From the NCBI GenBank assembly GCA_964585945.1, contig CAZPGB010000028.1, positions 8,736-72,735 of the forward strand: DNA of 64,000 bases, written 5' to 3'. Positions 5,700 to 37,362 of this stretch are shown here, one piece after another. How positions within the stretch are numbered: the stretch's first letter is position 1; each line of letters opens with the position of its first letter. The notes beneath the pieces were generated by a model. The model was not told the origin of the DNA. It saw nothing but the letters and a program-made list of their open reading frames with translations, and did not search any database. Position numbers and translations under genes: made by a program. Origin of the DNA: an uncultured bacterium. GTDB lineage: Bacteria > Eisenbacteria > RBG-16-71-46 > CAIMUX01 > WJJG01.

Positions 5700-5765
5700 C
5701 TCGTCTCGTCTCGTCTCGATTCGACTCGCTTCGTCCCCCACCCAACCGCGGGCAACGGCATCAAG

Positions 5766-6776: not shown

Positions 6777-6854
6777 GCGAGCTCTCCATGCGTTGCTGCG
6801 GCCGGTGCCCGTTGCCTGCGCGAGACGACGGGCAAGCGCCGCGCGTCATCGCCT

Positions 6855-8093
6855 TCACATCGCGTCCGCCCCGGCGGCGGCCATGAGGGACGCGAGCGTG
6901 GCGTAGAAGGCGATCGACGTCTCGATATGATCGACCGGGCACTGGTCGCTGGGCGCGTGGGCGTGCGCTTCCTGACCCGGCCCGAAGCCGATCGTGGGCA
7001 CGCCGTGCAGCCCCATGGTGGCAACCCCGTTGGTGGAGAAGGTCCACCGGCCGGCGACGCCGGGATCGCCGAGCACGAGCGCCCGGGCGCGCAGCGCCGT
7101 CTGAACGAGCGGATGCGTCTCTTCCAGCACCCACGGCGGGAAGACCTGGCGCATCGGGTAGACGAAGCCGCGATAGGTCGGCCGCTCGAAGACGGGCACC
7201 TCGATCACAACCGGCGCTGCATCCTCGCGGGCGGCGGCCGCATCGACGATCTCCCGGATCTCGGCCAACGCGCTCGCCTCGGTTTCACCTGCGGTCAGGC
7301 GGCGGTCGAGATGGATGGTGCACGAGTCGGCCACGGCGCAGAGCGAGGGGGCCGTGGAGCGCACCTGCGAGGTCGTGATGCTGCCGCGTCCGAGGAAGGG
7401 GTCATCGGTCAAATGCGCACTCATCTCTGCGATGCCGCTCACGATCGGCGCCATGCGGTGGATCGCGTTGACGCCGCGCTCGGGCGCCGAGCCGTGGCAG
7501 GAGAGGCCCCGTGTGGTGACCTCGATCTCCATCCGGCCCCGCTGTCCCCGGCAGACCTGCAGGCCGGTCGGCTCGGTGAGCACGACCGCCTCGGGTGCGA
7601 TCACCTTCTCGCTCAGAATGTAGTGCCAGCAAAGCCCGTCGCAGTCCTCCTCGAAGACCGAGCCGACGATCCAGATCGTCCACCCCTCGGCTAGCCCCAG
7701 GCGCCGGATCAACGTCCCCGCGTAGACGAGTGCCGCCATGCCGCCCTTCTGGTCGCTCGCCCCGCGCCCATAGAGAACCCCATCGCGGATCTCGCCGCCG
7801 AAGGGATCGACGCTCCACAGGCGGCGATCCCCGACGCCGACCGTGTCGACGTGCGCGTCGAAGGCCAGCGTGCGCGGACCCGCGCCGATGCGGCCCAGGA
7901 CGTTGCCGAACGGATCGATGCGCACCTCGTCGAACGCCAGGGACGTCATCCGGTCGCGGATGAGGGCGATCACCTCGCCCTCCCGGCCCGAGAGCGAGGG
8001 CGTGCGCACCAGCTCCTGGAAGAAGCCGACCGCCTCGGCGGCCATCTGTGCCGCCCCGGCGCGTATCGCACCGCCTGTTCGGTCGTCGCTCAT
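6855..8093 (-). CDS. ygeY: YgeY-family M20/ArgE-DapE amidohydrolase
   Basis: DAHVDTV, GRGASDQKGG, EEDCDGLCW, GQRGRMEI, SCHGSAPERG, WTFSTNGV, GFGPGQEAHAH. Confidence 0.88.
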   Translation of the reverse strand: MSDDRTGGAIRAGAAQMAAEAVGFFQELVRTPSLSGREGEVIALIRDRMTSLAFDEVRIDPFGNVLGRIGAGPRTLAFDAHVDTVGVGDRRLWSVDPFGGEIRDGVLYGRGASDQKGGMAALVYAGTLIRRLGLAEGWTIWIVGSVFEEDCDGLCWHYILSEKVIAPEAVVLTEPTGLQVCRGQRGRMEIEVTTRGLSCHGSAPERGVNAIHRMAPIVSGIAEMSAHLTDDPFLGRGSITTSQVRSTAPSLCAVADSCTIHLDRRLTAGETEASALAEIREIVDAAAAREDAAPVVIEVPVFERPTYRGFVYPMRQVFPPWVLEETHPLVQTALRARALVLGDPGVAGRWTFSTNGVATMGLHGVPTIGFGPGQEAHAHAPSDQCPVDHIETSIAFYATLASLMAAAGADAM

Positions 8094-8139
8094 CGTCGTG
8101 GGCCCTCTCCTTCGTGACGAAATGCCAAGCTTCGCGCGC

Positions 8140-9390
8140 TCAAGACTGGATCAGTGCCAGCACGCGATCAAGATCCGGCTCAACGTGGTGGAGACGCTCG
8201 GGGCGCAGCGTCCGCTCGGCCGCGGCGGGATCTTTGAGCCCATGGCCGGTCAGGATCAACACGACCTCGTGCTCGGGCGCGAGAACGGCCTCCTCCATCG
8301 CCCGCCGCAGTCCGGCCAGTGTCGCAGCCGCGGCCGGCTCGGCCCACAGGCCGGCGCGGGTGGCCAGAAGCGTTTGCGCTTCCAGAATCTCCTCGTCGGT
8401 GACCGTCACGAAAGCGCCGTTCGTCTCCCGCACGGCGCGTAGGGCCTTGATCTGATCGCGGGGCGTGCCCACCGCGAGCGAGTCGGCCACCGTGTGGGGC
8501 GCAACGGGGCGACACGCGGGCCGGGCGTCGCGCCACGCGTCGGCCAGCGCGCTCGACCCGGCGGCCTGCACGCCGATCAAGCGCACAGGCGCTGCGAGCA
8601 GGCCGAGGTCGCACAGGTCGCGGAACCCCTTGTGGACGCCGCCCAGGATGCATCCGTCCCCAACCGGCACCAGCACCGCGTCCGGAGCGCGGTAGCCGAG
8701 CTGTTCCCAGATCTCGAGCGCCAGCGTTTTCTTGCCTTCGCCGAGGTAGGGATTGGAGGCCGTGTTGCGGTTGTAGAAGCCGAGGCGCGCGCAGACCTCG
8801 GCGCACAGGTCGAAGGCCTGATCATAGGAGCCGTCGACCGCGAAGAGGTGGGCGCCGTGCATGCGGATCTGCATCAGCTTGCCCGCCGGGGCCGAGGAGG
8901 GCGCGAAGATGTAGGCGGGCAGGTTGGCGCCGGCGGCCAGGGCCGCGAGCGATGCGGCCGCGTTGCCGGTGGAGGCGGCCGCGACGGCCCGGGCGCCGAC
9001 CTGACGGGCGTGAACCACGGCGATCAGGCTGGCGCGGTCCTTCGACGAGCCGCTCGGCTGGCGCGCATCGTCCTTGATCCAGAGCCGGTCGGGCACCGCG
9101 AATCCCCAGTCGCAGCGCGGGCGGTAGAGCGGCGTCACCGCGATGGGCGGCGCCGGACGCGGGTCGGGGGCGGCCACCGGCAGAAGCTCGGCGTAGCGCC
9201 AGAGCGTGGAATCGCTTCGCGCGCGCAGCCGCTCGGGCGTGATGCGCGGCTTGAGGGCGGCGATGTCGTAGAGGAGATCCAGGGTGCCGTTCAGAGGACC
9301 GCAGGAGGGGCATGTGTGCACCGCGCCAGCGGGATCGAAGGGGCGCCCGCAGCGCACGCAGCGCAGTTCCTGTAGGTAGGTGTCGCGCAT
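8140..9390 (-). CDS. threonine-synthase-like PLP-dependent enzyme (fold type II) with N-terminal zinc ribbon
   Basis: CVRC..CPSC, PSGSSKDRAS (PLP lysine), ASTGNAAAS, EGKKT, PVGDGCI, EPAAA, LTGHGLKD. Confidence 0.82.
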   Translation of the reverse strand: MRDTYLQELRCVRCGRPFDPAGAVHTCPSCGPLNGTLDLLYDIAALKPRITPERLRARSDSTLWRYAELLPVAAPDPRPAPPIAVTPLYRPRCDWGFAVPDRLWIKDDARQPSGSSKDRASLIAVVHARQVGARAVAAASTGNAAASLAALAAGANLPAYIFAPSSAPAGKLMQIRMHGAHLFAVDGSYDQAFDLCAEVCARLGFYNRNTASNPYLGEGKKTLALEIWEQLGYRAPDAVLVPVGDGCILGGVHKGFRDLCDLGLLAAPVRLIGVQAAGSSALADAWRDARPACRPVAPHTVADSLAVGTPRDQIKALRAVRETNGAFVTVTDEEILEAQTLLATRAGLWAEPAAAATLAGLRRAMEEAVLAPEHEVVLILTGHGLKDPAAAERTLRPERLHHVEPDLDRVLALIQS

Positions 9391-9441
9391 CTTCGCGGAT
9401 TCCCTTTCGTGTCGCGCCGAGATCCCTGTCCGGGAAACGTC

Positions 9442-10776
9442 TCAGAAGCGCTCCCAGAGTCCCTCGGCGGCGGCGCGGCAACGGCGCCGCACGTCGGTCT
9501 CGTCGACCGCAACCGGTGCGCCGCGCGAGAAGACGTGGCGTCCCCCGATCCACACCTCCTCGGCCCGCGCCTGCGCCAGGCCGAAGAGCACATGCCCCCA
9601 GAAGTTCTCGCCCGTGATGGGCGTCGGCGGGCGGTAGTCCCAGACGACCAGGTCCGCCGCGGCGCCCGGGGCCAGGCGGCCCATCGCGAGCCCGAATGTC
9701 TCGGAGGCCAGGCGCGCGTTGGCATCCAGGAGCAGGCCGGGCACGGTGGAGTATCCGGCGCGCGGATCGCCGGCCGTGTGGCTCTGAAGCAGATGGGCCA
9801 CCAGCGCCTCGGTGAGGACCGCGGCCGTGAACCCGTCGGTGCCCAGGGCCAGCTTCACCCCGGCCCGCTGCAACGCGGGCAGCGAGGCCGCGCCCACGGC
9901 GTTGTTCATGTTCGATTGCGCGCAGTGCGCCAGCCACGCGCCGCTCTCGGCCAACAGGCGCGTGTCGTGCTCGTCCAGGTGAACGCCATGAACGCAGATC
10001 GTGCGCGGCGTGAGCACGCCCGCCCGCGCCAACCGCTCGACCACGCTGCACCCGTAGCGCTCGCGGGCGTCGCGCTGGTCGATCGCGTCTTCGGCCACGT
10101 GCAGGTGAAACCCCGCCGAGCGGGCGTCGGGCTCGCCGGCGCAGCGCGCGAGCGTCTCGTCCGACAGCGTGAGGGAGGCGTGCAAGCCGAAGCGCGCCCG
10201 CAACCGCGCCTTCTCCGAATCGCAGGAGCGGATGAACGCCAGGTTCTCGTCGATGCCCGCCTGCGCCGCTTCGGACCCGTCGCGGTCGGAGACCTCGAAG
10301 CAGAGGCATGCGCGCAGGCCGAGCGTCTCCCAGGCGTCGGCGAGGGTCCGGAGCGAGCCCGTGACGGCGCTCTGCGAGGCGTGATGATCGAAGACGGTCG
10401 TCACCCCGTGGCGCAGACACTCGATCCCGTGAAGAAGCGCGCTCAGCTCGACGTCCGAGAGCGTCAGCGTCCGGTCGAGACGCCACCAGAGCCGCTCGAG
10501 CGTCTGGCGGAAGTCGGCGGGCGCGGGGTCCTTCAGCGCGATGCCGCGCGCCAGGGCCGAGTAGGCGTGGGTGTGCGCGTTGATCCAGCCGGGTGTGACC
10601 AGCCGTTCCGAGGCGTCGAAGCGCACGCCTGCATCCGGGGAGGGACCAGCGTGCGGGGACGGATCCACGCCCGCGATCGTCGCACCGTCGACCGTGATCC
10701 GGGCCGGCGCCAGCAGGTCGGATCCGCTGAAGACGACTCCGCCGTCGATGACGATCTGCTCGTGCGCTGCGCCCAT
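9442..10776 (-). CDS. ssnA: SsnA-family aminohydrolase
   Basis: PGWINAHTHAYSALARG, LWWRLD, GVTTVFDHHAS, FEVSDRDG, FGLHASLTLSD, HVAED, SNMNNAVG, LGTDG; ATG 10776 has AAGGAG upstream (alternative start 10794). Confidence 0.88.
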   Translation of the reverse strand: MGAAHEQIVIDGGVVFSGSDLLAPARITVDGATIAGVDPSPHAGPSPDAGVRFDASERLVTPGWINAHTHAYSALARGIALKDPAPADFRQTLERLWWRLDRTLTLSDVELSALLHGIECLRHGVTTVFDHHASQSAVTGSLRTLADAWETLGLRACLCFEVSDRDGSEAAQAGIDENLAFIRSCDSEKARLRARFGLHASLTLSDETLARCAGEPDARSAGFHLHVAEDAIDQRDARERYGCSVVERLARAGVLTPRTICVHGVHLDEHDTRLLAESGAWLAHCAQSNMNNAVGAASLPALQRAGVKLALGTDGFTAAVLTEALVAHLLQSHTAGDPRAGYSTVPGLLLDANARLASETFGLAMGRLAPGAAADLVVWDYRPPTPITGENFWGHVLFGLAQARAEEVWIGGRHVFSRGAPVAVDETDVRRRCRAAAEGLWERF

Positions 10777-10851
10777 CGGATCGTGCTCCTTCATGGGACC
10801 GTCAGCCCGCCGACCGGGAGCGCGGCCCGGTCGGCTCGGATGCGTGCCTCC

Positions 10852-12162
10852 TCAGCGCGGTCGCTCGTGCCACGAGCCCACGCTCACGCGTCCGTCCTCT
10901 GTGCGGGTTTCCAGCACCAGACACCCCTTCACTGGCGCGACCGTCACGCACAGCCCGCACCCCACGCACCGTTCCTCGTCGACCTCGGGATGCCGGTCGT
11001 CGCGCCACCGGATGGCGTCGTGCGCGCCGTCGCGGCAGGCGAGGTAGCAGAGCCCGCAGGCGATGCACGCCTCGGGCACCACGCGGCTGCGGACCGTGTA
11101 GCGCGGCAGCTCCTCGTGGCCGCCCAGCCTGGGCAGCGCCTTGCCGATCAGCGCGCCGGGCCCGTCCAGCTTCTTGCGGCGCAGGTAGTGGGCCAGCCCG
11201 CTCTTCAGGTCGTCGATGATGCGGAAGCCATGGTGCATGGGCGCCGTGCAGTACTGGACCAGGTGCGCGCCCACCAGCATCATCTCGGCCGCGTCGCGCC
11301 AGGTCGCGGCCCCGCCGGTTCCCAGAATCGGCAGCCGGACCTGGCGCGCGATCTCGGCGATTGTCCGCAGCGTGATCGGCTTGATCGCCGGGCCGGTGAG
11401 ACCCGAGTAGGTGGAGCGCCTGCCCAGAGAGGGGTAGGGGACGAAGCTCTCCAGGTCGACACCCATCAGCGCCGGCACGGAGTTGGACGCGGTGATCGCG
11501 TGCACGCCCGCCCGCGCCAGCGCGCGCGCCACGGCCACGATGTCGGTGACCTGGGGCGTGATCTTGATCGCCACCGGCACGTGGTCGGCGGCTTCCCGCA
11601 CCCAGGTGGCCACGCGCTCGGTCGCCTCGACCGACTGGGCCAGCATCTTGCCCGGGTCCTCGCCCATGCTGCCCTGCGGGCACGAGAAGGAGCACTCGAT
11701 CATGTCGACGCCCGCATCCTCGAGCCGGCGCACCAGCGACTGCCAGTCCTCGCGGCGCGTGCCCATGATCGAGGCCAGGATGACCTTTTCCGGGAAGCGC
11801 TTCTTCAGCCGGCGGACGCGCTTCTCGACGACATCGATTGTGTGGGCGCTGATCAGGTCGATGTTGCCCATGGCCAGCAGCCGGCGATCGGCGTGGTCGA
11901 GCGAGGTCATCATCGGATAGGCCAGGTCGACCGCGGTCCCTTCGACCGACGTGGTCTTGAGCACCGCGCCGGCCCATCCCATCTCGAGGCCGCGCGCGAC
12001 GATCTCCTCGTTGTCGGTGCAGGGGGAGGCGGCCAGAATGAACGGGTTCTCGAAGCGCAGGCCGCAGACCTCGGTCACGAGGCCGTCGCTGGGGTAGGGC
12101 GCCTCGTGGCTCAGACGGTCTTCCGGATCCCTGCGGGACGTCTGGACATCCTTGCGACTCAT
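10852..12162 (-). CDS. preA: NAD-dependent dihydropyrimidine dehydrogenase subunit PreA-like (FMN domain plus C-terminal Fe-S)
   Basis: True start MSRKDV at 12162 (ATGA overlap with preT); NPFILAASP, GWAGAVLKT, NIDLIS, SCPQG, KITPQVTDI, GLTGPAIKPI, CIACGLC..C, CVGCGLC. Confidence 0.85.
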   Translation of the reverse strand: MSRKDVQTSRRDPEDRLSHEAPYPSDGLVTEVCGLRFENPFILAASPCTDNEEIVARGLEMGWAGAVLKTTSVEGTAVDLAYPMMTSLDHADRRLLAMGNIDLISAHTIDVVEKRVRRLKKRFPEKVILASIMGTRREDWQSLVRRLEDAGVDMIECSFSCPQGSMGEDPGKMLAQSVEATERVATWVREAADHVPVAIKITPQVTDIVAVARALARAGVHAITASNSVPALMGVDLESFVPYPSLGRRSTYSGLTGPAIKPITLRTIAEIARQVRLPILGTGGAATWRDAAEMMLVGAHLVQYCTAPMHHGFRIIDDLKSGLAHYLRRKKLDGPGALIGKALPRLGGHEELPRYTVRSRVVPEACIACGLCYLACRDGAHDAIRWRDDRHPEVDEERCVGCGLCVTVAPVKGCLVLETRTEDGRVSVGSWHERPR

Positions 12163-13613
12163 CGTCCACCCCCCCGCCGGCCGGCCTCGGCCGCGCCGCG
12201 CCGCTGCAGCATGGTCGCGATGGCCGCGGCGGCCAGACGGCCGTCGCGCACGGCGGTGACGATCGTCTGGTCGAGTCCCACCGCATCGCCCCCCGCGTAG
12301 ATGGTCCCCGTCACGCGGCGCGTGCGCGGGTGGGCGCGCAGGAAGCCGTCGGGCGTCCAGGGGAGCGCGGTGGGCAGCCCCGGCTCGAGGGCGAGCCCGG
12401 TGGCCAGGATCGCCTGGTCGCAGGGCATCTCGAACGCGCCGCCCCGCACCACGACCGGACGGGGGCGGCCGCTGCCATCGGGCTCGCCGGTCCGCAGACG
12501 ATGGAGGCGCACGCCGGTCAGACGGCCGCGCTCGCCGAGCAGCGCCTCGGGCGCCTGCAGCGGGTGGAGCACGACGCCGAAGGACTCTGCCTCCTGGATC
12601 TCGCGTTCCCAGGCCGGCATCTCGCGCCGCGTGCGGCGGTAAATCAGGTGCACGCGCGGCGGACGCCGGCGCGGCCCGTCGCGCTCGGCCCGAATCTGGC
12701 CGCAGCGCACCACGGCCAGCGCGGCGTCGATGGCGACATTGCCCCCGCCGATGACCACCACCTCGCGTCCAACCCCCACCCGGTAACGCCGCCGGCGGCA
12801 GTGCGCCAGAAAGGCGCTCGCGGCGGATACCCCGCGCAGATCCACGCCCGGCAGATCGGGCACCGCGTCGACCAGGCCCACCCCCACGAACACCGCATCG
12901 AACCGGCGCGCGAGCCGGTGCAGATCGGCCACCGGGCGCTCCAGTCGGATGTCGATGCGCGGGCCGTCGGAGGCGCGTTCGCGCTTCGGCGCGCGGAGTG
13001 TCCAGCCCAGCGCCCAGGCCGCGTCGCGCATCACGACGTCGTCGGGGAAGCGGTAGAGCGGAATGGTGCGCGCGAGGACGCCTCCCAGCCGGTCGCGCTG
13101 CTCGAACAGCGTGACCCGCAGACCGCGCCGCCACAGCTCGTGGGCGCAGGCCATGCCTGCAGGCCCCGCGCCCACCACCGCCACGCGGCCTGCCAGGGAG
13201 CCGCTGCGCCGGGGCGGGCGCGCCCTGCGGGTCTCGCCCTGCCGCGTGGCGTACCGGTGCAGCCGCCGGATCTCGATCGGCCGGTCGATCGCCGCGCGCA
13301 GGCAGTGCGCCGCGCAGAGCTGCTCGTCGGGGCAGGCCTGACCGCAGCTCGCCGCCAGCGGGTTGGACGCGCGCACCACCTCGGCCGCGCCGGCGAGGTT
13401 GCCGGTGCGGATCATGCGGATGAAGCGCGGGATCACGATGTGCGCCGGGCAGGCCTCGGTGCACGGGGCCTGGTGGCACTGCAGGCAGCGCCAGGCCTCG
13501 GCGAGCGCCTGCGCGTCGTCGAACAGCGGCTCGGCCTCCATCGTGGCGGGCGCCGGTCGATAGGGGGGCAGCACACGGCCCGCCCGGCGCGGCCCGGCCT
13601 TCCTGGGGGTCAT
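12159..13613 (-). CDS. preT: PreT/GltD-like FAD- and Fe-S-containing NAD(P)H oxidoreductase
   Basis: EAWRCLQCHQAPCTEACP, CGQACPDEQLCAAHC, VVGAGPAGM, VIGGGNVAIDAA, YRRTRREMPA, YAGGDA; start MTPRK at 13613 overlaps the xdhC-like stop. Confidence 0.82.
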   Translation of the reverse strand: MTPRKAGPRRAGRVLPPYRPAPATMEAEPLFDDAQALAEAWRCLQCHQAPCTEACPAHIVIPRFIRMIRTGNLAGAAEVVRASNPLAASCGQACPDEQLCAAHCLRAAIDRPIEIRRLHRYATRQGETRRARPPRRSGSLAGRVAVVGAGPAGMACAHELWRRGLRVTLFEQRDRLGGVLARTIPLYRFPDDVVMRDAAWALGWTLRAPKRERASDGPRIDIRLERPVADLHRLARRFDAVFVGVGLVDAVPDLPGVDLRGVSAASAFLAHCRRRRYRVGVGREVVVIGGGNVAIDAALAVVRCGQIRAERDGPRRRPPRVHLIYRRTRREMPAWEREIQEAESFGVVLHPLQAPEALLGERGRLTGVRLHRLRTGEPDGSGRPRPVVVRGGAFEMPCDQAILATGLALEPGLPTALPWTPDGFLRAHPRTRRVTGTIYAGGDAVGLDQTIVTAVRDGRLAAAAIATMLQRRGAAEAGRRGGGR

Positions 13614-14176
13614 GGCGTCTCTCCTGGGTCGGGTGTCTGCGGTTTCTCGGGCGCGCCTGCGCCCGCGCCGGCCTCGCCGCGCGCGAGCCCGGGCGTGTCG
13701 TACCGTCCGGCGGCGACGGCCTCGACCGCGTCGATGATGGGCAGGTACCCCGTGCAGCGGCAGAGATTGCCGCTCAGCGCGCGGCGGATCTCGGCCCGCG
13801 TGGGGTGCGGCTGGCGGTCGAGCAGCGCCTTGGCCGACAGAATCATCCCCGGCGTGCAGAAGCCGCACGCCACCGCGTCGTGATCGAGGAACGCGACCTG
13901 CAGCGGATGGAGCTCGGGGCCCAATCCCTCCACGGTCAGCACGCGTCGTCCTTCCACCTGACCGGCGAGCACGAGACAACTGGCCACGGCGCGGCCGTCC
14001 AGCAACACCGTGCAGGCGCCGCACTGACCGATCTCGCAGCCGCACTTGGTGCCCGTCAGGTGCAGGTGGTCCCGCACGAGCTGCAGCAGCGTCGTCTCGG
14101 GCGACACGCGGACCTGCCGGGGTGTGCCGTTGATCTCGAAGCGAATCTCGAGGGCATGCTCACCCGATGTGTCCAT
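13610..14176 (-). CDS. xanthine dehydrogenase family (2Fe-2S)-binding subunit
   Basis: GTKCGCEIGQCGACTV, ACGFCTPG, GNLCRCTGY. Confidence 0.93.
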   Translation of the reverse strand: MDTSGEHALEIRFEINGTPRQVRVSPETTLLQLVRDHLHLTGTKCGCEIGQCGACTVLLDGRAVASCLVLAGQVEGRRVLTVEGLGPELHPLQVAFLDHDAVACGFCTPGMILSAKALLDRQPHPTRAEIRRALSGNLCRCTGYLPIIDAVEAVAAGRYDTPGLARGEAGAGAGAPEKPQTPDPGETP

Positions 14177-14191
14177 GGTTCTTCTCCTCGC

Positions 14192-15085
14192 TCACGGAAG
14201 CCGCGCGGCGGCGCGCTCGAGCGTGCGCCGCAGCATGGCGGCCACGACCGGCTCCTTGTAGGGCGCCGACCAACGTCGGCCCACGATGCGCAGCATCTCC
14301 TGCGCCAGCGCGGTGCCGGCCGCGGCGAAGAGCGCCTCTCCGGGCTTCTGTCCGTCGAGCAGCGCTTCCACGACGGGGAACCGCCGCGGGGTCGGCGTGA
14401 CCGAGCCGGCCGCAACGCGCGCGCGGGTCAGCGTCCCATCCGCGCCGCGGTGCAGCACGACGGCCATCGACATGCGCGAGATCGATAGCGCCTGCCGACG
14501 TCCCAGCTTGAGAAAGGCGCTGCCGGGCCCGGGCGCGGCAAAGCGCACTTCGGTGACCAGCTCGTCCGGCGCCAGCGAGGTCTCGTAGGGAGCCTGCACG
14601 AGCTGGTCGATCGGCACGCTCCGCGAGCCTCGCCGGGAGACGCAGACGCACCGGGCCTCGAGCGCCAGCAGCGCGGGCAGCGTGTCGGCGCAGGGCGAGG
14701 CGGTGCAGATGTTGCCGCCCAGCGTGCCGCGCCGGCGGATCTGAGGCGACCCGACGGTTGCCGCCGCTTCGGACAACACGCGCGCCGCGCGCATCAGGAG
14801 CGCGCTGCGCTCCATCTCATCGTGCGTGGCGAGCGCGCCGACGCGGATCATCGCGCCCCCGGCCCCGCGGGGCGAGGTCTCCTCTTCGTCCGATGAGATC
14901 CCTCGCAGCGCTTCCACCGGCGTGATGTCCAGCACGGCCAGCACCGGGGCGTCGGACGCGGCTTCGCGCAGCGCCACGAGCAGATCGGTGCCGCCGGCCA
15001 CGAAGCGGCCGGCGTCCCGATGGTCCGCCTTGAAGGCCAGCGCCTCATCCACGGCGACCGCTCGTTGGAACGTGATGCTGCGCAC
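14192..15085 (-). CDS. xanthine dehydrogenase family FAD-binding subunit
   Basis: AGGTDL, VGSPQIRRRGTLGGNICTASPCAD, KLGRRQALSIS. Confidence 0.9.
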   Translation of the reverse strand: MRSITFQRAVAVDEALAFKADHRDAGRFVAGGTDLLVALREAASDAPVLAVLDITPVEALRGISSDEEETSPRGAGGAMIRVGALATHDEMERSALLMRAARVLSEAAATVGSPQIRRRGTLGGNICTASPCADTLPALLALEARCVCVSRRGSRSVPIDQLVQAPYETSLAPDELVTEVRFAAPGPGSAFLKLGRRQALSISRMSMAVVLHRGADGTLTRARVAAGSVTPTPRRFPVVEALLDGQKPGEALFAAAGTALAQEMLRIVGRRWSAPYKEPVVAAMLRRTLERAAARLP

Positions 15086-17433
15086 TAGGACACCTCGCTC
15101 GGGCCGGGGTCATCCGCGCGGAGGTGATGCCCCAGGAGCACCGCCTCCAGGTCGGCCGGCAGCTCCCGCACGCGCCGCGACGTCGCGTGCGCGATGGCGT
15201 TCACCACCGCCGGGGCCGTGATCTCCGTGGCCGGCTCGCCCACGCTCTTGGCGCCGAAGGGGCCGGCCGGATCGGGGTTCTCGACGATGATCGCATCCAC
15301 CTCGGGGGCGTCCATGGCCGTCGGCAGAAGATAGGTGTTGAGGTTGAGCGTCCGCGGTACGCCGCCCGTAAGGCGATGCTCTTCCCACAGGCCGTAGCCG
15401 CAGCCCATCGCAACGCCGCCGTAGATCTGGTTGCGGACCATGGCCGGGCTGATGGCGCGGCCCACGTCGTGCGCCGCCACGACGCGCATCACCTCGACCT
15501 GTCCGGTTTCCAGATCCACCTCCACCTCGGCCACGTTGGCGCTGTAGACGAAGGTGAAGTAGGCCTGACCGGTGCCGTGCCGCTCGTCCCAGTCGGTCTG
15601 GGGGGCGTGATGCCACCCGAAGCCGAGCAGCGGCCGGCCGGCGGCGTGCGCGCGCGCGGCCGCCTCCACAAAGGTGATCGCGTGGCCACGGCCGTCACCG
15701 ATGGCGCCGTCCTCGCAGCGCAGATCGTCGTAGGCCGCGCCCAGCGACTGCGCGGCCACGGCGAGCAGCTCGCCGCGGACCGCTTCGGCCGCCTTCTTGA
15801 CCGCCTGTCCGCCCATGATCGTCGAGCGGCTTGCCACCGTGGGTCCCGAGTCGGGGACGCGGCCGGTGTGCACGCAGAAGCAGCGGATGCGCTCCAGACC
15901 GACGCCCAGGACCTCGGCCGCGATCAGGGCCATGGCGCTGGAGAGTCCCTGGCCCATGTCGACCAGGCCCAGGCTGATCAGGATCGAGCCGTCGGTCTGG
16001 ACCGAGACGATCGCGCCCACCGCATCCACGCCCTCGGCGCCCAGACTGACCCCACGGAAGGAGCAGGCCACGCCGATGCCGCGGGCGCGGGTTGGGCTCG
16101 CCGCGGCGGGCAGCTCGCGTCGCGCGCGCTCCCAGTCGGCCGCCGCGGCCGCCCGGCGCAGCACATCGCCGATCGATACGCGATGCCCGTCGAGCTTCTG
16201 TCCCGTCGCCGTGCGGTCGCCCTGACCCAGCACGTTGCGCAGGCGCAGCTCGAGCGGATCGATCCCCAACTGCTCGGCCAGCTCGTCGACGAGCGACTCG
16301 ACGGCGAAGTTGACCTGCGGCGCGCCGAAGCCGCGCATGGCGCCGGTGTAGACGTTGTTCGTGTAGACGGCCATCACGTCGGCGTGCACGTGCGGGCAGG
16401 CGTAGGGCCCGGTGACCTGCACGGCCGAGCGCCAGGTGACGAAGGGGGAGGTGGCCGCGTACGCGCCCGCGTCGGCCAAGATGCGCGCCTCGATCGCCAG
16501 CAGCCGGCCGTCGCGGTCGACACCGGCCCTGTAGTGCAGAACGTAGGGATGCCGCTTGTAGGACTCGATCAGCGACTCCTCGCGCGTGTAGACCATCTTG
16601 ACCGGCCGGCCGGTCGCCAGGGCCAGCAGCGCCGCGCGGCAGGCGAGCTGGCTCATCACCTCGTCCTTGCCGCCGAAGGAGCCGCCCAGGGTGGCCTGCT
16701 TCACGGTGACGCGCGCCAGGTCGAGATTGAGCACCGCGGCCATCGCGCGGCGCGTCGAGAAGATGTTCTGGATCGAGCCGGTCACGCGCACGCCGCCCTC
16801 GGGCTCGGGCTCGGCCAGCACCGCCTCGGGCTCGAGGTAGGCGTGCTCGATGGGCTGGGTGCGGTAGGTGCGCTCGAGGACCAGGTGCGCGGCCGCGAAG
16901 CCGACGGCGGGGTCGCCCTTGCGGATGCGGTGGTGGGCGCACAGATTGGGAGCGTCGGGCGCATCCGCGTGCGCCGGCTCGCTCGGCGGCGCGGCCGGCT
17001 GGTGCACCACCGGCGCGTCCGGGCGCAGGGCCTCCTCGGGATCGAAGACGCCGGGCAGCTCCTCGAGCTCCACCGCGATCCGCGCCGCGGCATCCTGCGC
17101 CGCCGCACGGGTCTCGGCCGCGACGATCGCCACCCCGTCGCCGTACTGGCGCACCTTGTCGAACGCCAGCACGGGCTGGTTGGCCACGATCCCGCCGAAG
17201 CGCTTCGCACCGGGGATGTCGGCGGCCGTGAGCACCGCGGCCACGCCGGGCGCGCCCCGCGCCGCGCGGGTGTCGATCGCGATCAGCCGCGCGTGCGGGC
17301 AGGGAACGCGCAGCACGGCGCCCCACAGCATGGCGGGCGCCGACAGGTCGGCGGCGAACCGCGCCCGGCCCGTCACCTTGCCCAGGGCGTCGACGCGCCG
17401 GTGCGGTTTGCCGATGATGCGCATCTGGCTCAC
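15085..17433 (-). CDS. xanthine dehydrogenase family molybdopterin-binding subunit
   Basis: KVTGRARFAAD, HAYLEPE, LGGSFGGK, AMRGFGAPQ, DMGQG, TVASRST, GPFGAKSVGE; GTG 17433 with GGAG upstream (alternative ATG 17424). Confidence 0.92.
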   Translation of the reverse strand: MSQMRIIGKPHRRVDALGKVTGRARFAADLSAPAMLWGAVLRVPCPHARLIAIDTRAARGAPGVAAVLTAADIPGAKRFGGIVANQPVLAFDKVRQYGDGVAIVAAETRAAAQDAAARIAVELEELPGVFDPEEALRPDAPVVHQPAAPPSEPAHADAPDAPNLCAHHRIRKGDPAVGFAAAHLVLERTYRTQPIEHAYLEPEAVLAEPEPEGGVRVTGSIQNIFSTRRAMAAVLNLDLARVTVKQATLGGSFGGKDEVMSQLACRAALLALATGRPVKMVYTREESLIESYKRHPYVLHYRAGVDRDGRLLAIEARILADAGAYAATSPFVTWRSAVQVTGPYACPHVHADVMAVYTNNVYTGAMRGFGAPQVNFAVESLVDELAEQLGIDPLELRLRNVLGQGDRTATGQKLDGHRVSIGDVLRRAAAAADWERARRELPAAASPTRARGIGVACSFRGVSLGAEGVDAVGAIVSVQTDGSILISLGLVDMGQGLSSAMALIAAEVLGVGLERIRCFCVHTGRVPDSGPTVASRSTIMGGQAVKKAAEAVRGELLAVAAQSLGAAYDDLRCEDGAIGDGRGHAITFVEAAARAHAAGRPLLGFGWHHAPQTDWDERHGTGQAYFTFVYSANVAEVEVDLETGQVEVMRVVAAHDVGRAISPAMVRNQIYGGVAMGCGYGLWEEHRLTGGVPRTLNLNTYLLPTAMDAPEVDAIIVENPDPAGPFGAKSVGEPATEITAPAVVNAIAHATSRRVRELPADLEAVLLGHHLRADDPGPSEVS

Positions 17434-17534
17434 CCGATCCACTCCGATCGAAGATGGTGTTTGACCGCGTGACGATCGCATAGTGCCTGATGCTCCCGAA
17501 GGGCACAAGCCGGCTCGGATGGGGCGCCGGCGCG

Positions 17535-18587
17535 TCAGCCGCTGCGCAGGCGCTCCTCGTGGTCGATGGCGAAACGCAGTCCGGCCAGGAGCAGCAGGTT
17601 GAAGGCCAGCTCCGCCAGGCCCCACCACTCCACGCGGTAGAAGACGAAGACCATCGTGAGGAAGATCGTGACCTGCGTGGCCCGCTGGAACATCCGCAGT
17701 GCGCGCAGGCGATCGCGAAACACGTAGACGAACCCGAGGGCCACGAAGACCCCCGCCAGGAGGCTCGAGCCGAGCTGCAGCCAGTCCACCAGCGAGTAGG
17801 TCTCTGTCTCCACCGGCAACGAGCTCACCAGCGGCACCTCCAGAAGCCGGTTGCGCTCATCGGGCAGCAGGTGGGCGAGGGCGGTCAGACGCAGGAGCTT
17901 CAGCACCAACTGAATGAGAAAGAAGGCCACCAGCCCGCGGCCGAACCAGCGCGAGGCCGCCAGACGATGGTACCGAGCCACCAGTCGCGCGCCCAGGCGA
18001 GCGATCGGGTCCGGCTCGCGCGACGCCACCAGGTCGGCCTCCAGGAGGATGGCCCGCAACCGTCCGGCGAAGGGGAACTCCGCGGCGGCCCGATCCAGAT
18101 GGCGCAGCGCGCGGTCGCGTTCCCCTCGATCCAGGTCGCCGACCGCCATCTCGGTGACATCCTCCAGCGCGTTGGCCAGATGCTCCGCGCCGGTGGCGGC
18201 GCGCTCGCGGTGGATCGACCTCAGGCCCAGATAGAGCAGGCCGAAGACCGCGTAGATGATCGAGACCGCCGGCTCATAGAAGTAGTCGTTGTCGTGGGTG
18301 ATGAACTTGCCCACCTCGTCGATGAAGGTCCCGAACCCCGCGCCCCCGATCACCGCCGCCAGGGCGTGCAGGCCGCGGCCCAGGGAGGAGAGTAGAATCA
18401 CCAGCGCCAGCAGCATCAGCAGCCCGCCCCACAGGACATGGGCGATGTGGAGACCCGATCCCCCCAGGGTGGGGTAGCCCGTGACCACCAGGAAGAAGCG
18501 GATCAGCAGCACGGCGGTGACGGCCGACACCAGCATCAGATCGAGATGGCGGCCGGCCGCGAAATCGCGCAAGAAGCGCTTCTGCAT
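17535..18587 (-). CDS. conserved hypothetical multi-pass membrane protein
   Basis: Several hydrophobic helices; HIAHVLWGGLLM and GFGTFIDEVGKFITHDNDYFY motifs; ATG 18587 after a GGAG-rich RBS. Confidence 0.7.
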   Translation of the reverse strand: MQKRFLRDFAAGRHLDLMLVSAVTAVLLIRFFLVVTGYPTLGGSGLHIAHVLWGGLLMLLALVILLSSLGRGLHALAAVIGGAGFGTFIDEVGKFITHDNDYFYEPAVSIIYAVFGLLYLGLRSIHRERAATGAEHLANALEDVTEMAVGDLDRGERDRALRHLDRAAAEFPFAGRLRAILLEADLVASREPDPIARLGARLVARYHRLAASRWFGRGLVAFFLIQLVLKLLRLTALAHLLPDERNRLLEVPLVSSLPVETETYSLVDWLQLGSSLLAGVFVALGFVYVFRDRLRALRMFQRATQVTIFLTMVFVFYRVEWWGLAELAFNLLLLAGLRFAIDHEERLRSG

Positions 18588-33155: not shown

Positions 33156-33240
33156 CCCGCCGGTTGCGCCGGCCACCCGGCTACTGACCCGCCGGTCGCG
33201 CGGCCACCCGGCTACTGACCCGCCGGTCGTGCCGACTACC
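33146..33240. repeat. ~31-32 bp tandem repeat x3 spanning the era-metG intergenic region
   Basis: CGGCTACTGACCCGCCGGT.. at 33146, 33178 and 33209. Confidence 0.9.
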
Positions 33241-35179
33241 CGACCTTCGACCCCGGCGGCACGTCGCCGTCGATCGTGACCAGCTTGACCTGCTTGCCCG
33301 CCTGGGCGGCCAGCAGCATGCCCTGCGATTCCAGGCCCCGGATCTTGGCCGGCTCCAGGTTGGCCACCACGACGATCAGCTTGCCGACCATCTCTTCGGG
33401 CGAGTAGTGCTCGGCGATCCCGGCCACGATCTGGCGCTCCTCGTCTCCCAGCGTGATCTCCATCCGCAGCAGACGATCGGCCTTGGGAACGCGCTCGGCA
33501 CGCACTACCTTGGCGACGCGCAACTCGGTCTTGAAGAAGCTCTTGATGTCGATCAAAGCAATACCCTCCGGGGCCCCTCGAGCCGTCGCGACCTGCGGGC
33601 TCGCCGCGCTTGCAGGGCCCTTCGCTTCCGTCTGCGCCGGGGTGCGCGTGTCGATCCGCGGGAAGAGCGCTTCGACCGCGCCGATCGGCCGGCCGGGCTC
33701 CAGGCGCCCCCACTCGCGCAGCCCGCCGAGGTGGGGATCGATCTGCTGCGCCGGCAAGCCCAGCGAGCGGCGCAGCACCGACATCTTCGACGGGATCACC
33801 GGGAAGAGCAGTCCTGAGACCACGCGCAGACACTCGGCGCTCGTGTAGAGGACGGTCGCGAGGCGCTCGGTGTCGCCCTCCTTGGCCAGCTTCCAGGGCG
33901 CGGCCTGATCGAAGTACCGGTTGGCCTCACGGACCGTCTCGAGCACCCGGCCGATGCCGCGGTCGAGCGCCATGCCCTCGACATGGTCCTGCATCGCCTG
34001 CACGGCCCCGGATGCGCTCGCGCGCAAGCCCGCTTCCGCGTCCCCGGCCGGCCCGGGCCGGGGGATCTTCCCCTCGCACTGCTTGGCGATCATCTTGAGC
34101 ACCCGGCTGGCGAGATTGCCCAGGTCATTGGCCAGGTCCGAGTTGTAGCGCTTCACGAAGTTCTCCTCCGTGAAGACCGCATCCTGGCCCAGCGTCATCT
34201 CGGCCATCAGGTAGTAGCGCAGGCTGTCGACGCCGTAGCGCTCCATCATCACCATCGGATCGGTGACGTTGCCCTCCGACTTCGACATCTTCGACCCACC
34301 CGAGAGCCACCAGCCGTGCGCGAAGATCGTCTGGGGCATCGCGACGCCCATCGCCTTCAGCATCGTCGGCCAGTAGACCGTGTGGGTGGTGAGGATGTCC
34401 TTGCCGATGAGATGGTAGCTGACGGGCCACCACCGGCCGAAGCGCTCCTCGTCGCGCCGATACCCGATCGCGCTGATGTAGTTGACCAGGGCGTCGAACC
34501 AGACGTAGCAGACGTAGTCTGGGTCCCACGGCAGGTCGATGCCCCAGGGCAGCCGCGTCTTGGGTCTCGAGATGCAGAGGTCCCCCAACGGCTTCTTCAG
34601 GAAGCCGAGGGTCTCGTTGCGGCGGAAGTCGGGCTGGATGAACTGGGGGTTCTGCTGGATGTAGTCGACGAGCCACTGGTGGTAGTTGCTCATCCGGAAA
34701 AAGTAGTTGGTCTCGACGATCTTCTCGACCGGCTTGCCCTCGGGGCTCTTGCCGTCGATGAGCTCCTTCTCGGTGTAGAAGCGCTCTTCGCTGACGCAGT
34801 ACCAGCCCTCGTATTCGCCCCGGTAGATCTCGCCGCGGTCATACAGATCCTGGAGGATTTCCTGCACGACGGAGGTGTGCCGGTCCTCGGTCGTGCGGAT
34901 GAAGTCGTCGTTGGAGATCTCCAGGCGCTTCCAGGCCTCGATGAAGCGCACGACCGTTCGATCGGCCTGCTCCTGGGCGGAGATGCCCAGCTTCTTGGCC
35001 GCGTCGTGCACCTTCTGGCCGTGCTCGTCGGTGCCGGTCAGGAAATGGGTGGGCACTTCCAGGAGGCGGTAGTACCGGGCCAGGACGTCGGCGAGCATGG
35101 TGGTGTAGGCATGGCCCACGTGCGGCACGTCGTTGACGTAGTAGATCGGGGTCGTCACGTAGAAGGTGTCGCGTCGCAT
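33236..35179 (-). CDS. metG: methionine--tRNA ligase with C-terminal tRNA-binding domain
   Basis: FYVTTPIYYVND.PHVGH, GTDEHGQK, YVWFDALVNY, IGKDI, KMSKS, NLEPAKIRGLESQGMLL. Confidence 0.97.
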   Translation of the reverse strand: MRRDTFYVTTPIYYVNDVPHVGHAYTTMLADVLARYYRLLEVPTHFLTGTDEHGQKVHDAAKKLGISAQEQADRTVVRFIEAWKRLEISNDDFIRTTEDRHTSVVQEILQDLYDRGEIYRGEYEGWYCVSEERFYTEKELIDGKSPEGKPVEKIVETNYFFRMSNYHQWLVDYIQQNPQFIQPDFRRNETLGFLKKPLGDLCISRPKTRLPWGIDLPWDPDYVCYVWFDALVNYISAIGYRRDEERFGRWWPVSYHLIGKDILTTHTVYWPTMLKAMGVAMPQTIFAHGWWLSGGSKMSKSEGNVTDPMVMMERYGVDSLRYYLMAEMTLGQDAVFTEENFVKRYNSDLANDLGNLASRVLKMIAKQCEGKIPRPGPAGDAEAGLRASASGAVQAMQDHVEGMALDRGIGRVLETVREANRYFDQAAPWKLAKEGDTERLATVLYTSAECLRVVSGLLFPVIPSKMSVLRRSLGLPAQQIDPHLGGLREWGRLEPGRPIGAVEALFPRIDTRTPAQTEAKGPASAASPQVATARGAPEGIALIDIKSFFKTELRVAKVVRAERVPKADRLLRMEITLGDEERQIVAGIAEHYSPEEMVGKLIVVVANLEPAKIRGLESQGMLLAAQAGKQVKLVTIDGDVPPGSKVG

Positions 35180-35509
35180 CGGTCTCTCCATCTCGCCCAT
35201 GGCGCGGACCCGCCCACGAGCACAGGCGGGTCGCCTTCTCGCGGCGGCGGGCTGCCCTGCGTGCCGGCCCGCGCGTCTGGCAACGAATTGCCGAGTAGGA
35301 TAGCGAATCCTTGCGCCCGGGGCAAATGCCGCGTGCCGCAAGCGTCCGCGTCACCGCGCTCGTGATCCGGGGTTCGACGATCGTCCTTGCCAACGACTTG
35401 GAGTATACTGCCCGCGATTTGCACCGGCGCACCCGGCGGATCCGCTCACGCCGCGCCGGGTAAGACGCGGTGGACGTTGAGACCCGCGGTTCGAAGGCAG
35501 GAGGATGCT

Positions 35510-36496
35510 GTGAGGACGAGGGCAGGGGGACGGTCTGCACGTCGGTCTTGGGTTTGGTCGGGGTTGCTGCTCCTGGGTGCGGCCATGTCGCTGTCCGCGG
35601 CCGGATGCGGGGGCTCCGAGCAGGAATCGGAGAGCGCATCGGGGACCCAGGGCGAGAGCGGCGGCGGTCCGCGCCGCCCGGCGGTTTCGAGCGGCGAGCA
35701 TGTGCAGCGGCAAGAGCAGGAGCTCAACACCGCCCGGGCGAACGTCAACGAGCCGCCCAAGGCCCGGCTGGAGGTGATCCCCGAGGAGGGCTGGGCCGGT
35801 CTCACCGCGGTCCATTTCGACGCCGGCCTCAGCTCCGACGACTATTCGCTCTCGGGGCAGCTCCAGAAGCGCTTCGACTTCGACGGCGACGGAACCTGGG
35901 ACACCCGCTTTCAGCGCAGCTCCCGCGTCGGCCACACGTTCGAGCGGCCGGGACGCTACGCGCCGCGACTCGAGGTGCGCGACACGGGCGGCCGCTCCGA
36001 TTCGGTCACCGCACCGCCGATCACCATCCACCCTGCCTGCCCGCCGCCCGACTTCACGCTGGTCGATGTGAACCCGAACTCCCCGACCCGCGGCCGGTCC
36101 TTTCGGCTGGCGGACACCCGCGGGCGACCGGTCTTGGCCTGGATCGTGACGGTCAGCACCTGATGCGATCGCCAGCAGCAGTTTGCTGCTCTGGACGATT
36201 TCGCATTCGAGCTGCGCGACCAGGAGGCGTTTGCCGACCTGGTCGTCTGGGCCATCCTGCGGCGGGACGCCACCGAGCGCCAGCTTCGGACCATGGTCGA
36301 GTATCGCGAGCTGCCCGTGCTCGAGGACGTCGGAGGCGTGGGGGTGGACCAGCTCTACGGCGTGGGCAGCACGCGCATCTACCTGATCTTCGGTCGTGAC
36401 GGCTGCCTCATTCCCACCGAAGGACTGTCCGGCGCCAGAGTGGCCGAGAACCTGCAGCTCTTGATGCCCTACCTGGAGCAGGCCGCGGCGAACTAG
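35510..36496 (+). CDS. candidate selenoprotein: lipoprotein with PKD domain and thioredoxin/redoxin-like domain (Sec at TGA 36161-36163)
   Basis: AGGAGG RBS and GTG 35510; lipobox SAAGC; PKD motifs (FDAGLSSD, FDFDGDGTWD, HTFERPGRY); PDFTLVDVNPNSPT redoxin start; the frame stays open past TGA to TAG 36494-36496; SECIS-like hairpin at 36164-36205. Confidence 0.7.
36164..36205 (+). promoter_or_regulatory. candidate bacterial SECIS element
   Basis: The hairpin starts immediately after UGA: upper stem AGCAGCA/UGCUGCU closing a GUU loop 17 nt from the UGA; lower stem UGCGA/UCGCA with bulges. Confidence 0.62.
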
Positions 36497-37362
36497 GGGA
36501 ACGCGCGGTCACGGAGCATGCCCAGCTTCATGTTCTCCATGGGCAGGATCTCCTCGAGCAGGGGAGGGCTGCCGTCGGCGTAGACGACCTTGCGCATCCC
36601 GGGCGGGACGGTTGCGAGCTCGCCCTCACGCGGGCCCACGGTCACCCGCCCCTCGAGGACGCAGACGCAGGTGGCTTCCGGGGAATCGATCACGGCGATC
36701 GTGCTGCCCAGCAGCTCCACCTGGGCGATCTCGGTCTCGACGACCAGGCGGGCCCCGGCGAAGGCCGGGCCCGTCGTGAACCGCACCTCGCCTTGGGGGA
36801 CCTCGGCGCGGGCGGTGCGACTCCACCACCGGCCGGCCGGCTCGGGCAGAATGACCTCGCCCTGCGGCGCGATCTGCACCCAGAGCTGATCGCCGGCCAC
36901 GAGGTCGAGCGCCGTGGAATCGGGGCGCGTCACGTGGACACCGGGTCGCAGCTTCGTTTCGATCCCCACCAGGTCGTCGAGCGCCATCGGCGTGCCGTCG
37001 ATGACGACGTGACCCAAGGCGAGCGGGTCGGCGAGCTGCCACGTGGGTCCGCGGTTCAGCGCCGACGCGACGATCAGCAGCACCACCGCCGCCGCCGCCG
37101 CGAAGCCCAGGCCCAGGAAACTGAGCCGCCGGGGCCGCGGTCGGGCGTCTCGATCCGGTCGGGCTGGAGGAGCGTCCGGGTAGGCGTCGGCCCGCCGGGC
37201 TTCACGCGGGGCCGCCGCGCCGGCCGGCTGGTCGAGCGTTCCGTCCAGGAAGCGCCGCTTCAGGTCCGCCCGGAAGGCCGGGGATGCGGCGGGCGTGCGC
37301 AGCGATCCTACCGCCTCGCGGATGCGAAGCGCCTCTGCGCTGTATCGGTTCTCGCCCATCAT
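36493..37362 (-). CDS. transmembrane anti-sigma factor, FecR-like periplasmic domain
   Basis: N-terminal PAFRADLKRRF, single TM helix, FecR-like GEVRF..VETEIAQVELLGS..VCVLEGRVTV; coupled to the sigma gene. Confidence 0.72.
   Translation of the reverse strand: MMGENRYSAEALRIREAVGSLRTPAASPAFRADLKRRFLDGTLDQPAGAAAPREARRADAYPDAPPARPDRDARPRPRRLSFLGLGFAAAAAVVLLIVASALNRGPTWQLADPLALGHVVIDGTPMALDDLVGIETKLRPGVHVTRPDSTALDLVAGDQLWVQIAPQGEVILPEPAGRWWSRTARAEVPQGEVRFTTGPAFAGARLVVETEIAQVELLGSTIAVIDSPEATCVCVLEGRVTVGPREGELATVPPGMRKVVYADGSPPLLEEILPMENMKLGMLRDRAFP

Follow-up and report, generated by a model that had tools for sequence, protein, structure and literature searches.

Thioredoxin-fold oxidoreductases of the TlpA type (TlpA, ResA, CcmG, Etrx) carry their catalytic domain outside the cytoplasm, either as membrane-anchored proteins or as lipoproteins, and act through a Cys-x-x-Cys active site; TlpA has a structural disulfide at a distal Cys position. 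Adjacent Cys and selenocysteine (Sec, U) residues are known from a different setting, the C-terminal Gly-Cys-Sec-Gly of mammalian thioredoxin reductase, where they form a vicinal selenenylsulfide. We have analyzed a window of 64,000 nucleotides of contig CAZPGB010000028.1, from an uncultured bacterium of the Eisenbacteria (the window is this whole stretch of DNA, and plain coordinates below are positions in it). At 35510–36496 (+) we find what we consider, with good confidence, to be one gene for a 328-residue selenoprotein, an exported and anchored TlpA-like selenol oxidoreductase whose UGA would be read by means of a hairpin. We call it the U-C protein, after the Sec and Cys that stand side by side in its active site. 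The sole redoxin model that matches it is NF053656 (redoxin_TUGYCR, "TUGYCR motif thioredoxin fold (seleno)protein").

The gene is a single frame running from GTG 35510 to TAG 36494–36496 and interrupted only by the TGA at 36161–36163, which, judging from the sequence comparisons given below, is very probably read as Sec. An earlier note on this DNA had joined two open reading frames (ORFs; 35387–36163 and 36293–36496) into one on the grounds that they share a frame and that this TGA is their sole separator, and had described a read-through product of 328 residues whose final TAG overlaps the stop of a convergent ORF. Sequence and ORF list bear this out in every point: the product ends at TAG 36494–36496 and the overlap with the stop of the convergent ORF 36493–37362 is 2 nt. 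The features of the gene are these:

35500–35505 (+), Shine-Dalgarno-like GGAGGA, 4 nt 5' of the GTG start, read from the sequence
35510–36496 (+), whole coding sequence by read-through, 328 codons plus TAG, with one in-frame TGA very probably read as Sec
35510–35608 (+), putative signal peptide with a lipobox-like A-A-G-C, by inspection; Cys33 codon at 35606–35608
35750–36007 (+), PKD domain, residues 81–166 (PF18911 PKD_4, 28.6 bits against a cut-off of 27)
36026–36493 (+), TlpA-like redoxin (thioredoxin-fold) domain, residues 173–328 (AlphaFold2, Foldseek, NF053656)
36038–36040 (+), Cys of CPxPDF (domain residue 5), invariant in 13/13 orthologues, proposed structural disulfide partner of the Cys at 36404–36406
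36161–36163 (+), UGA, proposed Sec codon, residue 218 (domain residue 46), by column identity with the orthologues, with the U of TUGYCR and with the Cys of homologues
36164–36166 (+), Cys directly after the Sec, completing the U-C pair, invariant in 13/13
36173–36191 (+), core hairpin of the Sec insertion sequence (SECIS), a 7-bp stem of 36173–36179 with 36185–36191 and the loop AGUUU at 36180–36184 (RNAalifold, covariation, minimum free energy)
36404–36406 (+), Cys of D-x-x-G-C (domain residue 127), invariant in 13/13 and aligned with the GC of TlpA 1jfu
36494–36496 (+), true stop codon TAG

The read-through protein was used as query in a six-frame search of 61 genomes, namely that of the window and 60 relatives. 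The taxonomic family of the window is represented among them by 15 genomes, and 13 of these gave a full-length match with a single internal TGA; the remaining 46 genomes gave none. The two family members in which the gene was not found have completeness values of 69% and 92%. In the alignment the TGA occupies the identical column in 13/13 orthologues, whose thioredoxin-fold domains are 33–62% identical to the window copy and share the local motif S-[TKSG]-U-C-[DSN]-x-x-[QR]-Q-F-A-[AVT]-[LFM]-D. The domain residues that are invariant in all 13 lie on both sides of the codon: C5, P6, P8, F10, D14, N16, S19, G23, R32, W39 and U46 up to and including it, and C47, Q52, F53, A54, D57, L99, D101, Y111, G126 and C127 after it. 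Beyond the TGA the frame remains open for 107–110 codons in every orthologue, and mean pairwise nucleotide identity there is 0.526, 0.587 and 0.467 at codon positions 1, 2 and 3, the pattern of a coding sequence; amino-acid identity among orthologues is 0.55 upstream of the UGA and 0.39 downstream. An aligned TGA with conservation on both sides, which the earlier note had put forward as a check, is thus what the 13 genes have. TGA is nevertheless a normal stop in this organism and not globally reassigned, since it terminates 16 of the 35 ORFs of the window with high G+C at third codon positions and 5 of the 13 U-C genes themselves end in it. A second, broken copy of the gene (L079, about 2128–2400) lies on another contig of the genome that gives L073 and L030. 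It has the PKD domain and CPPPDF, a deletion of about 30 residues, then P-G-K-U-C-S-L-E-R-Q-F-A-A-L-D and finally a frameshift with many stops, and is a decaying paralogue still showing the U-C motif.

More distant homologues show what stands in the place of the TGA. A profile of the 13 domains, run against 1.84 billion representatives, gave 226 matches at E<=0.001, of which the best 150 were classified. Of these best 150 of 226, 103 extend across the U column, 17 are N-terminal fragments whose last column is the one before U (...A-P-S-K), 28 are C-terminal fragments starting beyond it, and 2 fit no class. The U column is Cys in 94 of the 103 spanning matches, and the +3 column is Cys in 88 of them. 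The HMMER alignments put U on the first Cys of W-C-P-P-C (3kcm) and of W-C-V-P-C (TlpA 1jfu), with the Trp one residue earlier; Trp at the position of the TGA, which the earlier note had named as the sign of a nonsense mutation, was found in none of these homologues. A word-indexed search of 5.8 billion proteins returned only partial relatives of 192–272 aa covering 48–60% of the query. The closest protein records are unnamed or "hypothetical protein", and the relatives with named records are labelled Candidatus Eisenbacteria.

The hairpin was examined in the 48 nt starting at the UGA. RNAalifold, applied to the 13 genes, gave one helix, columns 13–19 with 25–31, closed by a loop A-G-U-U-Y. 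Standard pairs fill 94.0% of the 84 helix cells (12 distinct rows), against 21–65% when the 3' partner is slid by 1–3 columns, and the covariation score was reached by 0 of 500 shuffles. At pair 17:27 the 12 distinct rows divide evenly, six with A-U and six with G-C, and 14:30 shows four pair types among them. The rules for bacterial SECIS (bSECIS) elements in a 2026 catalogue ask for an apical loop of 3–9 nt, an upper stem of 4–16 bp, a G as first or second loop nucleotide, with G or U usually next, a distance of 16–37 nt from the UGA and a minimum free energy <= -7.5 kcal/mol (PMC13188914). Measured against all of these the U-C hairpin agrees, with a loop of 5 nt, G second and then U, a stem of 7 bp, a spacing of 16 nt and -9.4 kcal/mol. 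What the earlier note had described here was a long hairpin starting right after the UGA, with a loop G 17 nt away. A hairpin is present, its loop G is in the AGUUU core loop at that distance and the 7-bp core is kept among orthologues; the long stem (-24.6 kcal/mol over 48 nt in the window sequence) is not conserved. The doubt it had raised, that protein similarity and hairpin might not persist after the TGA, is answered by a frame that is open in 13/13 and by the pairing of the helix. In the window copy the codons of loop and stem are TTT GCT GCT, although across 12 long ORFs of the window Ala is encoded by GCT in 6.4% of cases and Phe by TTT in 14%; the use of these rare codons points to selection on the RNA.

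We have used two sets of related genes as controls. On the positive side, 12 TUGYCR Sec genes of NF053656 have a hairpin at the same columns with the loop A-G-U-U-Y. In the joint alignment of 25 sequences (13 U-C and 12 TUGYCR) six of the seven pairs change on both sides, 89.9% of cells are paired against 28–50% when slid, and the covariation of 0.829, compared with a shuffled mean of 0.225, was reached by 0 of 500 shuffles. On the negative side, the homologous positions were examined in 10 CxxC paralogues that lack the stop, taken from the same genome family, and just 28 of 70 cells are paired there; the hairpin is therefore not a by-product of coding for Q-F. One Cys paralogue lies in the window's own genome (G000:C50:29423-29725, minus strand; locus L023, 1309-2082, minus strand). 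It is a lipoprotein-like redoxin with PDFTLEDINPNS and C-S-N-C-K-A-Q-F, and it has no hairpin at the homologous place (3/7 pairs); no-stop paralogues resembling it are also found in eight related genomes. An Rfam scan of 36100–36300 at E<=10 returned only chance microRNA and small RNA matches; to our knowledge bacterial SECIS elements are not modelled in Rfam.

The genome has the machinery needed to read such a codon, a point that the earlier note had asked to be confirmed. We identified a tRNA-Sec (68.6 bits with Rfam; called SeC with anticodon tca by ARAGORN), selA (521 bits), selB (332 bits) and two selD genes, one of them with an in-frame TGA of its own; tRNA-Sec, SelA, SelB and SelD are all above curated cut-offs. 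The selD gene with the TGA (G000:C44:3807-4730, minus strand; locus L018) is itself a selenoprotein gene, with the codon in G-S-G-U-A-S-K and a GC-rich hairpin with a G-first G-G-A loop 20 nt after the UGA.

The product would be an exported protein of modular build. By eye, residues 1–33 show a basic start, a hydrophobic stretch and A-A-G-C, with Ala and not Leu at position -3, and [AGS]-C after a hydrophobic stretch was seen in the same way in 12 of the 13 orthologues. A low-complexity linker separates the putative signal peptide from the PKD domain, whose fusion to the redox domain, proposed in the earlier note, is upheld by a PF18911 match above the cut-off. Two database relatives, the partial proteins P0021 and P0043, match the same model with 32.3 and 24.8 bits, the latter below cut-off. 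The AlphaFold2 model of residues 173–328 has a predicted local distance difference test score (pLDDT) of 88 and a predicted template modelling score (pTM) of 0.85, and together with the Foldseek results it gives a thioredoxin fold that has, as in TlpA-like oxidoreductases, a beta-hairpin at the N-terminus and an insertion in the centre. The best Protein Data Bank matches in Foldseek are 4ka0, 4evm, 4hqs (the pneumococcal lipoprotein Etrx1), 4nmu, ResA, CcmG and TlpA, with a probability of 1.00 for 4ka0, 4evm, 4hqs, 4nmu and ResA; Sco proteins, peroxiredoxins and glutathione peroxidases (GPx) rank lower. In the model, domain residues 36–40 form a strand, U46 and C47 lie in the next loop, and helix 1 starts at residue 49. 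The earlier note had remarked on U followed directly by C in place of UxxC, and this arrangement is general: a CxxC active site is absent, the site is U-C-x-x, and the +3 residue is R, K, M, L, F, Q or Y and never Cys in 13/13. The pair C5 and C127 also co-occurs in the CSHC group of Cys homologues.

The nearest described family is the one modelled by NF053656. Its members score 135–191 bits in the Cys form and 142–228 bits in the Sec form, and the 12 Sec-form genes that we identified in other families of the same order (183–228 bits, one TGA each) have the motif T-U-[GSP]-[YT]-C-[RS]-x-Q-F; the U-C orthologues reach 43.9–64.6 bits. The two groups of proteins share the N-terminal hairpin PDFxLxDxNPNS, the Q-F after the active site and LPxLQD, and their genes share the Sec column, the distance to the SECIS and an A-G-U-U-Y loop made of the Q-F codons. 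They differ in the active site, x-U-C-x-x-x-Q-F in place of T-U-G-Y-C-R-x-Q-F, where the +3 Cys has been lost and a +1 Cys gained, and in the extra PKD domain and two further invariant Cys of the U-C protein. Looked for directly, T-U/C-G-Y-C-R is absent: the U column matches, and the residues after it read U-C-[DSN]-x in 13/13. In a quick tree on 145 columns the 13 U-C rows form their own clade, with a support of 97 in the Shimodaira-Hasegawa-like approximate likelihood ratio test (SH-aLRT), and lie outside a group, with a support of 95, in which TUGYCR falls together with other CxxC groups. Descent of the U-C form from a TUGYCR gene is not claimed, as this tree puts the U-C clade outside NF053656; a shared and an independent origin of Sec are both possible, because the loop lies in conserved Q-F codons.

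The distribution of both forms was compared in 35 genomes of the order. The U-C form is present in 13 of the 15 genomes of family f1, which is that of the window, and in 0 of the 20 genomes of families f2–f4, and TUGYCR above cut-off in 0 of 15 and 14 of 20, respectively. This mutual exclusion is a pattern and not a test, since kin are not independent. Judged by its sequence, the U-C protein is a diverged sister of the curated NF053656 redoxin family and not a free-standing new family. The earlier note had proposed a new subtype of extracytoplasmic redox selenoprotein; the selenoprotein part is supported by UGA, SECIS and machinery, and the novelty has to be reduced to that of a diverged sister. 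A tandem protein with about five TUGYCR-type redoxin domains was also observed (locus L067, G024:C15:78866-81178, and protein P0004); some of its repeats have a TGA and others lack one or both active-site Cys (A-T-Q-T-R-D, A-T-D-T-A-C, A-T-D-P-A-C).

Our analysis shows how the gene is built, that its UGA is conserved and has a SECIS behind it, that the genome encodes the Sec machinery, and how the domain folds and its active site aligns. Beyond this we infer Sec insertion in vivo, export and lipidation, and a redox cycle of the U-C pair with its substrate and electron donor, as follows. The UGA at 36161–36163 would be decoded as Sec by SelB and tRNA-Sec, directed by the hairpin that lies 16 nt downstream within the coding sequence. 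Sec would then occupy the nucleophilic first Cys position of CxxC/UxxC, at the N-terminus of helix 1, in a protein anchored outside the cytoplasmic membrane and acting as a thiol/selenol oxidoreductase. The selenolate would attack an oxidised substrate, and the adjacent invariant Cys219, standing in for the lost +3 Cys, would resolve the Se-S or Se-O adduct and form a vicinal selenenylsulfide, for which the tail of mammalian thioredoxin reductase offers a chemical precedent. Cys177, of CPxPDF, and Cys299, of DxxGC, may form a structural disulfide like that of TlpA. A more speculative idea, towards which we are rather sceptical, is that in this lineage a vicinal Sec-Cys has replaced U/C-x-x-C, the fold then cycling via an eight-membered selenenylsulfide ring like the tail of thioredoxin reductase, on the external face of the membrane and with the substrate held by the PKD domain. 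If true, the vicinal Sec-Cys would give the thioredoxin fold a redox centre of a new type, one that appears to have taken the place of the TUGYCR form in one Candidatus Eisenbacteria family.

Several observations weigh against reading the gene as a TlpA-like selenol oxidoreductase. The window protein scores 47.9 bits with NF053656, whose cut-off is 100, and falls outside membership; the Pfam models Redoxin and AhpC-TSA gave no match at E<=1 with the two halves or the whole protein, where PKD was the only hit. Confidence in the structural model is lowest around the active site (block 41–50, pLDDT 73), and the presumed cis-Pro before strand 3 is Ala in 2 of the 13 orthologues. In the hairpin, the outermost pair 13:31 is unpaired in 4 of the 12 distinct U-C sequences and in 15 of 24 once the TUGYCR genes are added, and the conserved stem is therefore effectively one of 6 bp; the aligned sequences are also relatives, so that counts of covarying cells overstate the independent events. 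No operon partner came to light, the downstream neighbours varying by genus, and no substrate is indicated by them. Finally, a vicinal Sec-Cys pair could instead bind a metal or metalloid.

Two other readings deny that the codon is translated at all. Practically no credence can be given to a nonsense pseudogene, in which TGG, the Trp of a T-W-C, would have become TGA by mutation, leaving a frame in decay behind it. The sequence S-T-[TGA]-C is superficially like the A-T-W-C of TlpA-like WCxxC motifs, and one related genome does have the truly broken copy L079 (deletion and frameshift), but TGG or any sense codon is found at this column in 0 of 13 orthologues, all of which have kept the downstream frame open and conserved. 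The spacing from the TGA to Q-F also equals that from U in the TUGYCR genes, and the reading fails because the profile alignments place W at -1 and the first Cys of CxxC, not Trp, on the TGA. A genuine stop would leave a PKD lipoprotein of 217 residues, perhaps with a small protein from ATG 36293, and a hairpin with another role, for example in stabilising the mRNA or in coupling translation. The two pieces are just those that gene callers annotate, and termination usually competes with Sec insertion at bacterial UGA codons. We still regard a genuine stop as very improbable: the TGA separates strand 1 of the thioredoxin fold from helix 1 and leaves no complete domain in either piece, the internal ATG has no conserved counterpart and the C-terminal pieces in databases start at many positions, the Sec machinery is present in the genome, and the hairpin has SECIS geometry, common to known Sec genes and absent in Cys paralogues.

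The remaining alternatives accept Sec and concern what the protein does with it. A Sco-like chaperone, scavenger or sensor, in which a soft metal or metalloid (Cu, Hg, As, Se) would be bound by the U-C pair, alone or together with other Cys, is unlikely. In its favour, the canonical resolving Cys at +3 is lost, Sco1, Sco2 and ScoI are among the Foldseek matches (ranks 8, 18, 38 and 43), and the adjacent CU/UC motifs in Table 1 of the catalogue are mostly in metal-related proteins, namely the MerB-like SaoL, HgcA, MbdU and a CopZ-like GxUC (PMC13188914). Yet the invariant columns include no obvious conserved His or Met ligand, genes for metal transport or resistance are not conserved beside the gene, and the nearest relatives in both sequence and fold are thiol-disulfide oxidoreductases. 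Improbable in our judgement is a peroxidase of the peroxiredoxin (Prx) or GPx kind, where peroxide would oxidise Sec to selenenic acid and the neighbouring Cys would resolve it. Structures of this type appear among the fold matches (6vpd, 3zvj, 1xvw, 2p5r) and related Cys proteins match Pfam AhpC-TSA weakly, but the best matches in sequence and fold are reductases of the TlpA, ResA and Etrx type, and the Prx motif, which PMC13188914 gives as PxxxTxxC/U, is absent, with P at -3 and not at -7.

The surroundings of the gene were compared as well. In the window the methionyl-tRNA synthetase (MetRS) gene at 33236–35341 (-) lies upstream and divergent, and the convergent ORF 36493–37362 contains a FecR domain and is followed by a gene for an extracytoplasmic function (ECF) sigma factor. 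A MetRS gene adjoins the U-C gene in 21 of the 21 related loci with enough flank (L028–L038, L069–L078). In two genera it is divergent and 74–87% identical to that of the window; in the remaining genera it is co-directional, directly upstream and 26–31% identical, PF09334 having been confirmed for one of these. The adjacency thus outlasts a change of MetRS type and orientation. The downstream neighbours seen across genera are WD40, sulfatase, PD-(D/E)XK nuclease, TonB and S9 peptidase genes, with the FecR and ECF sigma genes in the window. Elsewhere in the window there is an IS1380 family transposase at 2767–4239 (+; 197.5 bits against a cut-off of 180), followed by a cluster at 4263–17856 (-) of the kind found in the neighbourhood of selenium-dependent molybdenum hydroxylases. 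Its members include a D-hydantoinase, a YgeW-like carbamoyltransferase, a threonine-synthase-like protein, a GltD/YgfK-like flavoprotein and the following:

6858–8150 (-), YgeY, 492.7 bits against a cut-off of 321
9445–10851 (-), SsnA, 458.9 bits against a cut-off of 444
14195–17856 (-), XdhB/XdhA-like subunits

This cluster suggests that the organism also uses selenium as a cofactor. The earlier note had pointed to ygeY, ssnA and xdh as families linked to selenium use; the genes are indeed in the window, but they lie more than 17 kb away and no link to the U-C gene was found.

When 185,579 species genomes were scanned for the pattern, 14 loci were obtained, 11 of them genes already found in the related genomes. 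The other three are the broken second copy, a different Sec redoxin (GSIT-U-PAT) and an ordinary BCP peroxiredoxin. The different Sec redoxin comes from a metagenome-assembled genome of Deltaproteobacteria (L080, about 4115–4120) and is an unrelated thioredoxin-fold gene with its TGA in G-S-I-T-U-P-A-T after CPAPDF, probably another Sec redoxin or a deiodinase-like protein. We found in the literature no paper with TUGYCR, with a selenoprotein carrying a PKD domain, or with Eisenbacteria and selenocysteine, although supplementary tables may list candidates; the same limit applies to deep-Sep, whose main text contains no mention of TlpA, redoxin, PKD or lipoprotein (PMC12013277).

These results document the use of Sec in Candidatus Eisenbacteria. 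They also show a gap in annotation: curated models miss this family, and public sets hold the U-C protein only as two truncated "hypothetical" pieces because its score is below the cut-off of NF053656; the 13 sequences and the SECIS alignment suffice for a model that would fix this. Besides, the two sister families amount to a natural experiment within one order, with the same Sec position and SECIS and with the resolving Cys at +3 in one and at +1 in the other, and their comparison could show how the spacing affects redox potential and substrate choice and why Sec has been kept.

Compared with described systems, the protein is closest in fold to TlpA, ResA, CcmG and Etrx (1jfu, 2h1b, 2b1k, 4hqs, 4evm, 3kcm, 4ka0; template modelling scores of 0.6–0.7, Foldseek E values of 3e-7 to 3e-5), whose layout outside the cytoplasm is like the one predicted here. 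Their nucleophile occupies the position of the Sec, and in TlpA the column of the distal DxxGC Cys also contains a Cys. They differ in that Cys-x-x-Cys is replaced by Sec-Cys with no Cys at +3, and in the added PKD domain, and the relation in sequence is weak (E values of 9e-5 to 4e-3 with the profile of the U-C family). Mammalian thioredoxin reductase, which has the same two residues side by side, has them in the order C-U and not U-C, is non-homologous and bears them on the flexible tail of a flavoenzyme and not in a thioredoxin-fold site. Among the 119 prokaryotic selenoprotein families of the 2026 catalogue, as far as its accessible text goes, none has NF053656, a fusion to PKD or a U-C motif in a thioredoxin fold (PMC13188914). 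Its table includes predicted TlpA- or redoxin-type selenoproteins, one of which, as described there, is a precedent for non-canonical spacing with U-G-C, in contrast to the U-C spacing here (PMC13188914). Set beside all of these, the U-C gene amounts to a sound correction of annotation whose active site is of chemical interest, but it is no new category.

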